Notes under the pieces: model-generated
Seen by the model: the letters and a program-made list of their open reading frames with translations, nothing else
Told to the model about the DNA's origin: nothing
The model's database searches: none
Origin: Candidatus Micrarchaeota archaeon
GTDB lineage: Archaea; Micrarchaeota; Micrarchaeia; Anstonellales; Bilamarchaeaceae
Length of the DNA stretch: 14,775 bases
Reading direction: 5' to 3'
Assembly (NCBI GenBank): GCA_040754495.1
Contig: JBFMCO010000002.1
Span: forward strand, 1-14,775
Program-made: the position numbers and the translations under genes
In this document: positions 7,450 through 14,775 of the stretch, one piece after another
How positions within the stretch are numbered: the first letter of the stretch is position 1
How the letters are laid out: each line of letters begins with the position of its first letter

Positions 7450-7842
7450 TCACTCAACCCTCATGATGGGCTCCGAGAGCCAGGAGCCTTTTTTCGAATG
7501 CTTCCTGAGCTTCGCCTCATCAAGGGTGAGCCACTCGAAGCCAGCATAAGCCGATGCAGGGTCGGGTTCTTCCTTCCGGAGCTGCCTCATCTCAAGGACA
7601 AGGCACGGGATGTGATTCCCCTCGTGCTCGTACCTGCCTTCGAGCACTATCCTCCCGGCCTCGGCCTTGATGCCAGCCTGCTTCCTGAATGCTTCGGAGA
7701 GCTGGGAAACAGGGTCCGCGCTGAGGCTTCCGTATACGCACGGCATCTCTATGCCCGTCCCATGGCCTTCCTTGCGCAGCAGGAAAAGCGCCCTGCCGCC
7801 GCGCTCGAGCATCCCAACTATGAGCGCCTTCGGCTGGTTCAT
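7450..7842 (-). CDS. Nudix-fold-like protein with degenerate Nudix box (paralogue 1)
   Basis: Start MNQPKAL at 7842 (ATGA overlap with the trpS stop). Collinear with paralogue 2 (PKAL, GMLExGGRxLFLLRK, EMPCV, EAF, IVxEGR, PCLV, GFxWLxLD). Confidence 0.7.
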   Translation of the reverse strand: MNQPKALIVGMLERGGRALFLLRKEGHGTGIEMPCVYGSLSADPVSQLSEAFRKQAGIKAEAGRIVLEGRYEHEGNHIPCLVLEMRQLRKEEPDPASAYAGFEWLTLDEAKLRKHSKKGSWLSEPIMRVE

Positions 7843-9056
7843 TCGTAAATCCTCTCCCACATCTCGGCAGCCAGTTTCCCGTTTCGGGTGAAACGCTCCA
7901 GGTCCTTCTCGGCCTTCCTGCGCCTCTCGCGGTGTTCTTTCAGGAACGAATTCACCTTCTCGATTAGCATCACCTTCAGCTCGCCGGTCAGCAGCTTCCC
8001 GGCCCGGTAGTCGTCATGGATGGCCTTCAGCCTTGCATCGTCCGGCTCGAAGAGTATGGAGAGCCACTGGTAGGGCACGTCCACGTCCGGGTTGCCGCCG
8101 AGCCTCCGATGCTCCTCGACCGTCGCCTGCCCGCCCGAAAACGCGTACTTGCTGACCTTGTTCTTCACCGTCTTCTCGTCGTCCGTGAGCAGAATGGCGG
8201 TCTCGGCGCTTGCGCTCGAGCTCATCTTGCCAGTTACGCCCTGGAGCGGGGGGAGGAACCTGCTGTGGATGGCGGCCGTCTTGTAATACCCCATCGGCTC
8301 GGCTATATCCCTCTGTATCCTCCAGTACGGGTCCTGGTCTATGGCGCACGGGATGAGGCACCTCTTCTTCTCGAAGAACGTGGGAAGCGTCTGGATGGCC
8401 GGGTACATGTTCAGCCCGATGTTCGTCGAGTCGTCGAACCCGAAGACCGCCTTCACGGTCGAGCCGGTTATCCTGCGCGCGGTGTTCAGCAGGAGCGGGT
8501 ACATGTTCCGGATATACCCGCTGTCCCTGAATATGAACGTCCGCTCCGGGTCGAAGCCGACGGCTATTATGTCGAGTATGTTGTCGTGCGCGGCCTCCTG
8601 CACCTGCATCCACTGGTACTCCCTCTTGTGCAGGAACCCCTCGTCGTCGGTTATCTCTATGTAGAGGTTGACCTTGAACTTCTCCTGGAGCCACCGGGTC
8701 ATAATCATCGGGACAAGGTGCCCGATGTGCATCCCCTTGCTCGGCTTCCTGCCGGTATAGAGGAAGAACCCCTTCCCCTTCTCGTAGTCGTCCAGCACGA
8801 GGTTCAGGTCCCTGTGCGAGAAGAAGAAGTCCCTCCTCAGCATGTGGTGCGGCTCGTCCCCGCCGCACGCCTTGAGCATCCGCTCGCGCAGGGCCGAATC
8901 TATCCTGCTCGTCCCGAACTGCCTGATGAGCTTGTCGTAGTCGATTGCCCCGCTGACCTCCCAGGGCGTCACTTTGAACCCGGTTTCGCCACTTCCGTCT
9001 TTCCCCGTCCGTCTTGCCGTTCCTCCGGTGGCGAGACCGGGTTTGAACTCTTCCAT
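7839..9056 (-). CDS. trpS: Tryptophan--tRNA ligase, archaeal/eukaryal type
   Basis: FKVTPWEV, DYDKLIxxFG, FFFSHRD, LYTGR, HIGH motif, QDPYWR, KMSSS (KMSKS) motif. Confidence 0.96.
   Translation of the reverse strand: MEEFKPGLATGGTARRTGKDGSGETGFKVTPWEVSGAIDYDKLIRQFGTSRIDSALRERMLKACGGDEPHHMLRRDFFFSHRDLNLVLDDYEKGKGFFLYTGRKPSKGMHIGHLVPMIMTRWLQEKFKVNLYIEITDDEGFLHKREYQWMQVQEAAHDNILDIIAVGFDPERTFIFRDSGYIRNMYPLLLNTARRITGSTVKAVFGFDDSTNIGLNMYPAIQTLPTFFEKKRCLIPCAIDQDPYWRIQRDIAEPMGYYKTAAIHSRFLPPLQGVTGKMSSSASAETAILLTDDEKTVKNKVSKYAFSGGQATVEEHRRLGGNPDVDVPYQWLSILFEPDDARLKAIHDDYRAGKLLTGELKVMLIEKVNSFLKEHRERRRKAEKDLERFTRNGKLAAEMWERIYE
8973..9048. repeat. Palindromic MITE-like insertion inside trpS codons 3-28, flanked by 7-bp direct repeats
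   Basis: Direct repeats TTTGAAC at 8973-8979 and 9042-9048 (period 69 bp). Inverted arms AACCCGGTTTCGCCAC (8977-8992) and GTGGCGAGACCGGGTT (9028-9043), 15/16 complementary. Confidence 0.85.
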
Positions 9057-9077
9057 GGACGTAGAACTCAGTCAAGG

Positions 9078-9086
9078 ATTAAATAA
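9078..9086 (-). promoter_or_regulatory. Putative TATA box of trpS (probably leaderless transcript)
   Basis: TTATTTAAT on the minus strand 22-30 nt upstream of the trpS ATG; no Shine-Dalgarno-like motif in between. Confidence 0.4.
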
Positions 9087-9101
9087 GATAGGCAAGGGCT
9101 T

Positions 9102-13267: not shown

Positions 13268-13855
13268 TGTTAAGTCAACCGGCCGTGCTAATGCTTTTCA
13301 GGTATAGCAGACCGGGGAAATCCTTGACCCCTTGGTGATAACGCTTATAGTTGTACCAGTCCTTGAACTGGGCCACCACATCTTCAAGTGAAAGGCCCAG
13401 GTGTTTCACCAGCCTAATGACTTCTTCATTCACATTCCTTATGCATCGTTCTACTTTTCCCTTGTCTCTTGGATAGTAGGGATGCGCAAAAACGGCTTCA
13501 ATGACGTTGGCTAGTAGGGCCTCTTTCCAGCTATCTTTGAATTGGCCGCCGTTATCAGACAGTATTTTCTCAGGTTTGCCGTGCATCGCAAATGCCTTCT
13601 CAAGATCAGCCACAATGTCTTCTGTTGTTGGGTCTTTGTCGTAAACTTTCAGGATAATCAGGCATCGGGAATAATCGTCGATAACAACCAGGATGAAATT
13701 CCTTTTTCCGTACATGTGCACCGGCCCTTTGAGGTCTATCTGCCACATCTCATTAGCCTTTGCAGCACGGAAGAATTTCCATTCGTGCAGCTTACCATAA
13801 GGAGAGCCATTCATTCTATGCCGTTTCAGCACGTTATTTATGGACTGCCTGCTTA
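13268..13855 (-). mobile_element. IS481-like element, 3' part (transposase catalytic core plus right end), interrupted by IS21
   Basis: Putative terminal TGTTAAGTCAACCGG at 13268 with the transposase stop inside it; lower GC than the flanking host genes; ends where the IS21 IR begins. Confidence 0.7.
13275..13855 (-). pseudogene. rve/DDE transposase (IS481-like), N-terminus missing
   Basis: WQIDLKGP, VVIDDYSR, SDNGGQF, HPYYPRDKGKVER, WYNYKRYH. The first 15 residues of the track ORF come from read-through of the IS21 left end (GTG at 13901). Confidence 0.85.
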
Positions 13856-14649
13856 TGATAACGCCGACTGAAAATTTACCACTTTCACCGACACGTGCCA
13901 CCAGCGATTATAACCCAACCAGTGTATGATGCTGGGAGAGTTATGATCACACGAGGTGGACACATGGAAATAAGGAATCTTTTGGAGAATGGGGTCTCAG
14001 TATCTGAGGCAGCCAGGGGATTGGGTGTGGCAAGGGCTACTGTCAGAAAGTACGCTGACATGCCCTCGTTCATAACCTATATCCGGGAAAAGAAGAAGCC
14101 GCACAAGCTTGAGCCATATAAGGAATACATCAAAGGGAGGCTGGAGAAGTACCCCCTGAGTAGTGTACGGCTGTACGAGGAAATCCTGAAGATGGGCTAC
14201 ACCGGCAAGATATCGCGCCTAAGGGATTTTGTGATGGAATTGCACCATGAAAAAGCGTATCATGCCGTCATGATGTTTGAGACTGCCCCTGGGCAGCAGG
14301 GGCAGATAGACTGGGGGGAGGTCGGTAAAATGCAGACTGACGAAGGGGAGGTGAAAATATACGTCTTCTGCATGATCCTCGGATACTCAAGAACGCGGTA
14401 TATCGAGTTCACACTCTCCATGAATCTTGAGACGCTTCTCAAATGCCAGATGAACGCCTATGACTATTATGGAGGAGCTCCGAATGAGCATCTCTATGAC
14501 AACATGAAAACTGTCGTCCTGGTGCGGGGCAAGACTTCCGATGAATCCGATTTCAACCCAAGGTTTGCCGACTTTGCAGCGTATTATGGCTTCAAACCAA
14601 AACTGTGCCGCCCATGCAAGCCACGCACAAAGGGCAAGGTGGAGAAGCT
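13856..14649 (+). mobile_element. IS21-family element, 5' part (IRL plus truncated istA), interrupted by IS3
   Basis: TG-terminated end TGATAACGCCGACTGAAAATTTACCACTTTCACCGAC resembling IS21-family IRs, followed by istA; istB is not in the window. Confidence 0.82.
13943..14649 (+). pseudogene. istA: IS21-family transposase IstA, truncated
   Basis: MITRGGHMEIRNLLENGVSVSEAARGLG helix-turn-helix, FETAPGQQGQIDWG, LGYSR, YDNMKT, FAAYYGF, PRTKGKVE. The frame enters the IS3 IR immediately afterwards and stops at 14665. Confidence 0.9.
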
Positions 14650-14775
14650 TGGACTGCACCCCTAAAAGTGGACAATTAGAAAAGACTCATCCCACTATTG
14701 AAAAGGGGTGCAAAAATGAAATTGAAGCGCAGGTTCACGAGAGAATTCAAGCTGGCAGTAGTACGGGAGCTGCAA
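14650..14775 (+). mobile_element. IS3-family insertion sequence, left end (IRL plus start of orfA), running off the window edge
   Basis: Starts TGGACTGCACCCCTAAAAGTGGACAA; identical to the reverse complement of 2-127. Confidence 0.85.
14716..14775 (+). CDS. IS3-family transposase OrfA, N-terminal fragment (truncated by window edge)
   Basis: ATG 14716, MKLKRRFTREFKLAVVRELQ. Confidence 0.8.
   Translation, partial: MKLKRRFTREFKLAVVRELQ

Follow-up and report, generated by a model that had tools for sequence, protein, structure and literature searches.

The RPEs of Rickettsia (Ogata et al. 2000) are short palindromic elements with inverted ends that lie in frame and stop-free within conserved housekeeping genes. 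RPEs are described as bacterial elements of 105-150 bp that number in the dozens, with many copies located in ORFs, and as adding a peptide segment that is tolerated in a reduced genome, with no autonomous partner known (PMC10969869, PMC2229807). An RPE-bearing guanylate kinase is reported to have been compared with and without its insert. The MJRE of M. jannaschii are described as archaeal palindromic repeats, some members of which lie inside coding regions (PMC10969869, PMC2229807). Bacterial MITEs have likewise been found fused in frame to ORFs, namely the ERIC/IRU and the 107-bp Correia/NEMIS elements (PMC2229807). Here we analyse an insert in the tryptophanyl-tRNA synthetase gene (trpS) of a Candidatus Micrarchaeota archaeon, and the family of palindromic repeats to which it belongs, against the background of these systems. 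A further point of comparison is provided by REP/REPIN elements, which are mobilised by RAYT.

Like the RPEs, the Micrarchaeota family has a palindrome, inverted ends and in-frame, stop-free insertions in conserved genes, and no autonomous partner was found for it. Unlike them, it is archaeal, its copies measure 67-148 nt and occur once or twice per genome with a clear 2-bp duplication, and only two (possibly three) of the 12 copies lie in coding sequence; the likeness drawn here is one of description. With MJRE it shares being an archaeal palindromic repeat family with coding members, although MJRE belongs to a different phylum, reaches a high copy number in one genome and is compared here by description only. 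The ERIC and Correia elements also resemble the family in having inverted ends, a brief target duplication, open frames and, once transcribed, a long stem-loop, but they are abundant and typically duplicate TA, whereas the Micrarchaeota copies are rare and carry a variable dinucleotide within T-NN-A. Finally, hairpin halves that are kept complementary by compensatory change and a location mostly at gene boundaries resemble REP/REPIN elements; however, REPs need a Y1 (HUH) transposase and make no target duplication, in contrast with the 2-bp duplication of the Micrarchaeota family and with the trpS-bearing assembly, where no Y1_Tnp was found.

The window, by which we mean the whole stretch of DNA that was analysed, is 14,775 nt long, and the features of the trpS region within it are as follows.

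7839-9056, minus strand: trpS (tryptophanyl-tRNA synthetase), 405 aa including the insert; from the ORF, Pfam tRNA-synt_1b (E 1e-22) and PDB 3JXE
8975-8976, no strand: probable target-site duplication TG, first copy, with T at -3; from flanks compared across family copies
8977-9043, minus strand: palindromic element of 67 nt, a short family member; from covariance model R1 and alignments
8977-8992, no strand: terminal inverted repeat, low-coordinate arm, AACCCGGTTTCGCCAC on the plus strand; from repeat search, arm pattern and pairing
8989-9016, no strand: imperfect tandem duplication of two 14-nt units (8989-9002 and 9003-9016), 79% alike; from repeat search
9028-9043, no strand: terminal inverted repeat, high-coordinate arm, GTGGCGAGACCGGGTT on the plus strand; from repeat search, arm pattern and pairing
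9044-9045, no strand: probable target-site duplication TG, second copy, with A at +3; from flanks compared across family copies
9078-9086, minus strand: putative TATA-like box TTATTTAAT, centred about 26 nt upstream of the ATG; from sequence and orthologous loci

The trpS product is a class I aminoacyl-tRNA synthetase whose closest solved structure is the Pyrococcus horikoshii TrpRS 3JXE (E 1.6e-136), and the structure-search alignment starts at query residue F27, which corresponds to F5 of the chain. Read along its coding (minus) strand, trpS opens with ATG GAA GAG TTC AAA, followed by 62 nt and then by G TTC AAA GTG ACG CCC TGG. Thus, 69 additional bases follow codon 5, keeping the reading frame and adding 23 residues to give the N-terminus MEEFK-PGLATGGTARRTGKDGSGETGFK-VTPWEV. 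A repeat search placed the 7-nt direct repeat TTTGAAC at 8973-8979 and 9042-9048 with a spacing of 69, and the inverted arms of 16 nt are 94% complementary, with 35 nt between them and one C.A/G.U position. The 67-nt element has zero stops in a six-frame check, and its 35-nt loop lacks T on the coding strand and carries ACGG four times. A first-pass annotation of this DNA had described the same arrangement, namely 69 bp in frame after the first trpS codons, 16-bp arms with one mismatch, a T-less loop with four ACGG and a body free of stops in all six frames, and our analysis recovered each of these, the last of them for the 67-nt element. The loop itself is partly a tandem duplication: the duplicated 14-nt unit copies a subterminal segment and forms most of the purine-rich loop, and because of this duplication ACGG is repeated there.

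The orientation of the trpS element is set by the subterminal motifs CACCGGAG and GACGGAAGTGGCG. Against R1 the element scored 50.9 bits (E 4.6e-9), although this copy is itself among the six sequences from which R1 was built. As RNA, the 5' region of trpS folds at -35.7 kcal/mol, no better than same-composition shuffles (z = -0.04); the signal of the insert is specific arm pairing and family membership, not folding energy.

The insert is confined to this copy of the gene among all TrpRS sequences that we compared. In a six-frame search, TrpRS was present in all but one of 40 relatives, and every match started at query residue 22-27, past the insert. The complete same-genus loci (more than 20 orthologues) begin M-x-x-F-[KT]-VTPWEV or shorter, with the extension in none, and none of 25 database TrpRS of 371-394 aa covers the insert, one of them starting exactly MEEFKVTPWEV. 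These 25 came from a search of 5.8 billion proteins with TrpRS residues 1-60, which returned no other protein that carries the insert. At the DNA level, a 151-nt contig from a public subsurface-metagenome run matches 8902-8979 with one difference, continues with TCTTCCAT... and then matches 9063-9094; this contig of a near relative is the trpS locus minus exactly 69 nt. The expectation that excision would restore MEEFKVTPWEV is thus borne out by more than 20 orthologues, 25 database proteins and one metagenome contig, and the relatives carry no homologous 23-aa extension. The host is itself a DPANN archaeon and does not belong to the Thermococcales. Because the trpS loci of relatives show this empty site, the insertion is recent and specific to the lineage of this archaeon.

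Elements with the same arms were collected with a degenerate arm pattern applied to the genus, the covariance model R1 (built from six copies), an order-wide search, a family-wide arm scan and an R1-filtered metagenome scan. Together they yielded 12 copies of a single repeat family, spread over seven genomes and one metagenome that all belong to one Micrarchaeota family; beside the trpS copy, the copies are distributed as follows.

G000:C62:28456-28546: one copy of 91 nt, in the same genome as the trpS copy, between divergent genes
G041 (Candidatus Micrarchaeota archaeon Sv348): two copies
G024, G010, G174 and G166: one copy each
G096: two copies
Contigs of one metagenome: two copies

The arm consensus AACCTGATYTCGCCAC is common to all copies, the terminal inverted repeats are 16 bp long in 12/12, and the alignments contain conserved subterminal motifs, CACC[TG]GAG and ACG[GC]AAGTGGCG. 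Most copies have a canonical body of 91 nt with an inner hairpin, GCCGCGTC...GACGCGGC. In the trpS copy, a derivative of 67 nt, both subterminal motifs are kept, the inner hairpin is missing and the small internal tandem duplication is present. Copy sizes range from 67 to 148 nt, with no transposase gene within any of them. G000, G041 and G096 hold two copies each and every other copy-bearing genome one, in assemblies that are 75-94% complete and from which repeats are often lost. When the 76-nt region, its arms and its loop were compared with their own 1.63-Mb assembly by blastn-short, only chance-level matches and no near-identical second copy were obtained, while weak matches of the 76-nt query in two relatives were complete hairpin elements with the same arms.

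Across the 151 sampled genomes of the order, no match fell outside this archaeal family, and neither did any true match of a GTDB-wide scan. Pattern scans of genome and viral contigs returned nearly all bacterial chance matches, the two genuine ones being the G041 copies. A near-identical arm with a different interior occurs in G044 (three copies), G003 (three) and G153, where there are at least 13, many of them lying at the ends of contigs. Six loci had no Rfam match at permissive thresholds, and a literature search found no paper joining Micrarchaeota with MITEs; the family is undescribed.

Comparison of the flanks across copies clarified the nature of the direct repeat in trpS. The flanking dinucleotides are identical in 10/12 copies (TG, TG, TG, CA, TT, TC, AA, GG, CC and AG), giving eight different duplicated dinucleotides with TG three times, and T occupies position -3 in 10/12 copies, the base after the right repeat usually being A. 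On these alignments, a 2-bp duplication in a T-NN-A target is more likely than one of 7 bp. A 4-bp TNNA or a 6-7-bp duplication was also considered and fits less well across copies; the G166 copy, whose terminal pair is G-C, retains only the 2-bp repeat. In trpS, TTTGAAC on one side consists of flank TT, duplication TG and arm AAC, and on the other side of arm TT, duplication TG and flank AAC. The 7-bp repeat, reported as GTTCAAA in the first-pass annotation, is thus present at both edges, but it is a composite: a 2-bp duplication (TG) is combined with the ends of the arms and with target bases similar to those ends when joined. We set aside one further regularity, the divisibility of insertion length by three in 11 of the 12 copies, which reaches at best p of about 0.05 after correction for the shared ancestry of the 93-nt copies.

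Taken together, these data favour the reading that the trpS insert is one copy of a small, mobile, MITE-like palindromic repeat, to which we assign a probability of roughly three in four. The first-pass annotation had proposed a MITE-like, coding-compatible element of an undescribed family, and it has gained support from the 12 copies (one more in the same genome and ten elsewhere), their varying flanking duplications, the empty sites of relatives, a second in-frame insertion in a DUF167 gene and the lack of an Rfam match. Against the MITE reading stand the very low copy number, one or two per genome, which is unusual for MITEs, the outcome of the search for an autonomous element described below, and the paired changes in the arms.

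The arms of the family are not only similar between copies but paired within them. When all 12 copies are aligned, 94.7% of the arm cells pair, and compensatory double changes occur at 5/16 arm positions in four copies, a level reached by 0/500 shuffles. These double changes lie at position 1 in G166, position 2 in G000:C62, positions 5 and 7 in the trpS copy and position 15 in G096. They suggest either a role for the stem as such or homogenisation between the arms; a pair of protein-binding sites, each decaying on its own, would explain them less well than would homogenisation or selection for a hairpin.

An alternative that draws on these changes is that the same mobile family moves as a structure-recognised hairpin (single-stranded DNA or RNA), in the manner of REP/REPIN with RAYT or of IS200/IS605-like elements, and not as a double-stranded TIR transposon; the arms would then stay complementary because the stem is the substrate. 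Compensatory changes at 5/16 positions in four different copies, together with our finding no DDE partner with matching ends in the assemblies searched, speak for it. Y1/HUH-mediated insertion, however, makes no target duplication, unlike the perfect, variable 2-bp duplication in 10/12 copies, and Y1_Tnp (PF01797) had no match in G000 (assembly 80% complete). Moreover, the paired changes could stem from different master copies. We therefore regard mobility through the hairpin as improbable, though it is the strongest of the competing explanations.

A second copy of the family also lies within a coding sequence. The copy on contig C76 of G041 sits within a 122-aa DUF167/YggU gene, where it interrupts the Pfam profile (E 3e-13); the insertion is 91 + 2 = 93 nt, in frame and stop-free, and adds 31 aa that are absent from thirty same-genus DUF167 orthologues. 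The closest orthologue, MIVEITAVPNSKRFSVSLKDGRLKV, compares with ...SVSLK[PDLATSEKTPVAKAASEHSRRRGSGGEIRFK]DGRLKV in G041, such that the empty site reads ...SVSLKDGRLK. NCBI annotates the G041 gene as one 122-aa DUF167 protein. The trpS and DUF167 insertions have the same phase relative to the arm and share the peptide ends [FL]KP[GD]LAT...SG(G)E[TI][GR]FK; with inverted arms and a length of 1 mod 3, the element encodes identical peptide ends whichever way round it lies. In the canonical arm, one phase in three meets a TGA.

These two are the only copies internal to genes among the 12. One more could form a C-terminus, as the G096 copy may provide the last 13 codons of a 270-aa ORF, and the remaining copies are intergenic, often no more than tens of bases from gene ends. 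Since the element peptide was found in no further protein among the longer and similar-length proteins of the 5.8-billion collection, which returned only the G041 DUF167 itself, coding insertions are the exception in this family.

In trpS, the element starts 13 nt past the A of the start codon. A TATA-like box lies 20-24 nt upstream of the ATG both in the window and, at the same distance, in about 20 orthologous trpS loci, and because this spacing is conserved, we infer that the trpS mRNA is leaderless or nearly so and starts at the conserved ATG. Translation would then read through the element, and the start of the conserved FKVTPWEV core stays intact because the arm ends and target regenerate the Phe-Lys codons. 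An AlphaFold2 model based on a 25-sequence alignment predicts a disordered N-terminal tail, with a pLDDT below 50 for residues 1-36, and a confident core (pTM 0.83). More than 70 residues precede the point equivalent to the FKVTPWEV start in human TrpRS chains. The enzyme is most likely active with a flexible, mildly basic 23-residue N-terminal tail.

The Val codon of FKVTPWEV is an in-frame GTG and a possible alternative start. If the element were transcribed in a new 5' leader and translation began at this GTG, TrpRS would be M-TPWEV with no extension. Some orthologues begin MKVTPWEV, such that residues before KVTPWEV are dispensable, and a stable stem adjoining the ATG could make it a poorer site of initiation. 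The conserved promoter-to-ATG spacing nevertheless fits a leaderless mRNA, no Shine-Dalgarno-like sequence directly precedes the GTG, and all orthologues examined have Lys or a similar residue before VTPWEV. Under a GTG start, the stop-free, in-frame state of the insert would also be a matter of chance, and the DUF167 copy needs read-through regardless. Initiation at the GTG consequently seems quite improbable, more so than hairpin mobility.

Still further from the evidence is the idea that the element is present in DNA and absent from the protein, either as a bulge-helix-bulge intron cut by the broad-specificity splicing endonuclease of these archaea or through ribosome hopping between the TTC AAA codons. 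Hopping has precedents in phage T4 gene 60 and the 'byp' elements of yeast mitochondria, and identical TTC AAA codons do flank the stem-loop on both sides. However, when the mRNA was scanned for the bulge-helix-bulge motif, in which a 4-bp helix separates two bulges of 3 nt, no candidate allowed in-frame excision of the element; those obtained had 2-bp helices or lost the start codon. In every copy, moreover, the 16-bp stem of the arms is continuous. The DUF167 copy has AAA before the insert and AAG after it, and since the trpS insert is open and in frame, its removal is unnecessary; we consider either route very improbable. A last alternative is that the insert belongs to no mobile family and arose through misassembly or chimerism of the metagenome-assembled genome, or through a single foldback or duplication event. 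That no other protein among 5.8 billion has the insert and that the genome contains no near-identical second copy might raise this suspicion, but it is equally implausible: the arms and subterminal motifs recur in six further genomes and one metagenome, all assembled independently, and the duplication and target obey the family rule, which neither an assembler nor a local foldback can produce.

Under the favoured reading of a mobile MITE-like repeat, the trpS insert would be a non-autonomous element of a low-copy family limited, as far as searched, to one Micrarchaeota family. A transposase that makes a 2-bp staggered cut, supplied in trans, would have inserted it 13 nt after the A of the ATG, where element and duplication together add 69 nt, in frame and stop-free. 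Translation from the original ATG would read through the element of the leaderless mRNA, and a functional TrpRS would gain a disordered, Gly/Thr/Arg-rich N-terminal tail of 23 residues. Such a tail would be tolerated because this end of TrpRS is exposed; eukaryotic TrpRS carry long natural extensions there. That the copy persists in so essential a gene is probably owed solely to the chance that it keeps the frame and contains no stop; it would be a passenger, neutral or mildly deleterious, and no adaptation.

A more far-reaching proposal is that the family is an archaeal counterpart of the RPEs suited to a streamlined DPANN genome. It would depend on the hairpin, with arms kept complementary (five pairs), and its canonical 93-nt insertion, a multiple of three, would give the same stop-free ends in both orientations (KPDLAT...SGEIRF), allowing it to settle in essential genes without being lethal; its mobilising enzyme would come from a class that has so far not been associated with elements of this kind. 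We think this proposal unlikely.

The trpS insert adds a documented archaeal (DPANN) case to the few apparently mobile palindromic repeats known to persist within protein genes that are essential; its empty site is documented, a related copy interrupts a second conserved gene, and a rule for ends and target is available. In tiny genomes, such insertions are among the few visible sources of new peptide segments. For annotation, the odd 23-residue extension of this TrpRS is explained, and the gene should neither be called a pseudogene nor have its start changed.

The family ends and target also provide a handle with which the enzyme responsible for moving hairpin repeats in Micrarchaeota could be traced. 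The first-pass annotation had suggested looking for an autonomous transposase or recombinase element with the same ends, and this search came back empty in G000, in 99 genomes of the family and in metagenome matches (assemblies 53-97% complete, repeats often lost). Arm-like pairs at IS spacing were likewise absent from G000 (assembly 80% complete), where Y1_Tnp, DDE_Tnp_1 and DDE_3 also had no matches. The rve-domain genes of G000, located in C25 and at 13275-14665 of the window, have ends unrelated to the family arms.

One candidate partner came from G003, where an HTH-rve transposase gene stops at a distance of 8 nt from a related arm. We considered whether this transposase was the autonomous partner, with the MITE as its deletion derivative, a relationship that is ruled out by homologous copies in G154, in which the IS proper has TGTT... 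ends flanked by CTAGC. The G003 transposase element is bounded by a 6-bp repeat, CTTAAC; it is IS481-like, has TGTT ends of its own and has inserted into a MITE-like copy.

Insertion length, taken as the element plus its 2-bp target-site duplication, was divisible by three for 11 of the 12 family copies, with the length of the copy in the archaeal genome G010 ambiguous by one base. The lengths divisible by three were 93 (eight times), 69, 108, 120 and 150 nt. The excess of multiples of three is marginal (p about 0.05) once the shared ancestry of the 93-nt form is allowed for. The one exception among the 12 copies, with an insertion length not divisible by three, is a 68-nt copy in genome G096 (G096:C3:97950-98017; L161:1501-1568), which overlaps the 3' end of a minus-strand 270-aa ORF. 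This ORF would end in ...KLSKWLLEPDLATYVKQPVG followed by a stop, so it may owe both a new C-terminus and its stop codon to the element.

Elsewhere in the genome of the window (G000:C26:10008-10024; L058:1501-1517), a stretch of 17 nt is identical to the arm and one further base of the intergenic C62 copy. This stretch is part of a 240-aa gene that contains GXGXG-type repeats, and there it codes for MQGGEIRLEG, a motif native to the gene product. The match is probably a coincidence, although the arm-encoded SGGEIR resembles that repeat.

Elements with similar arms and different interiors were present in the archaeal genomes G153 and G044:

G153: AT-rich element of ~180 nt with a nearly identical arm (AACCTGACTTCGCCAG), at 13 places, e.g. 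L168:273-455 and the starts of contigs C53, C73, C133 and C148
G044, C8:24564-24702: 139-nt element
G044, C24:13213, minus strand: 139-nt element
G044, C24:20063-20202: 139-nt element

All three G044 copies have the arm AACCTGACTTCGCCAC in common and an unrelated interior, and one copy has TTTTTAA on either side. The G153 assembly is repeatedly broken ~54 nt within the ~180-nt element. Among the family's relatives, this element may have the highest activity and offer the best starting point for a transposase search.

An IS481-like element (HTH and rve, 292 aa; ends TGTTAAGCGACACC and TGTTGCGTGACAGC) sits nested within a MITE-like copy in genome G003 (L177, G003:C86:15200-16836), accompanied by a 6-bp duplication, CTTAAC. 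In genome G154 (L182 and L184), the same IS is bordered at both contig ends by CTAGC, the classic IS481 target type.

Transposase remnants also lie at the contig end of the window (13275-14775), with ends like the element's arms absent from all of these ORFs:

13275-13901, minus strand: rve-domain ORF, 208 aa
13895-14665, plus strand: IS21 IstA-like ORF
near 14716: IS3 OrfA-like ORF, start only (MKLKRRFTREFKLAVV...)

The region upstream of trpS has a TATA-like box (TTTAAT or TTTTATC) in about 20 loci (L003-L021), always 20-24 nt from the ATG, with no Shine-Dalgarno sequence visible. Leaderless trpS transcription appears to be the rule across the genus.
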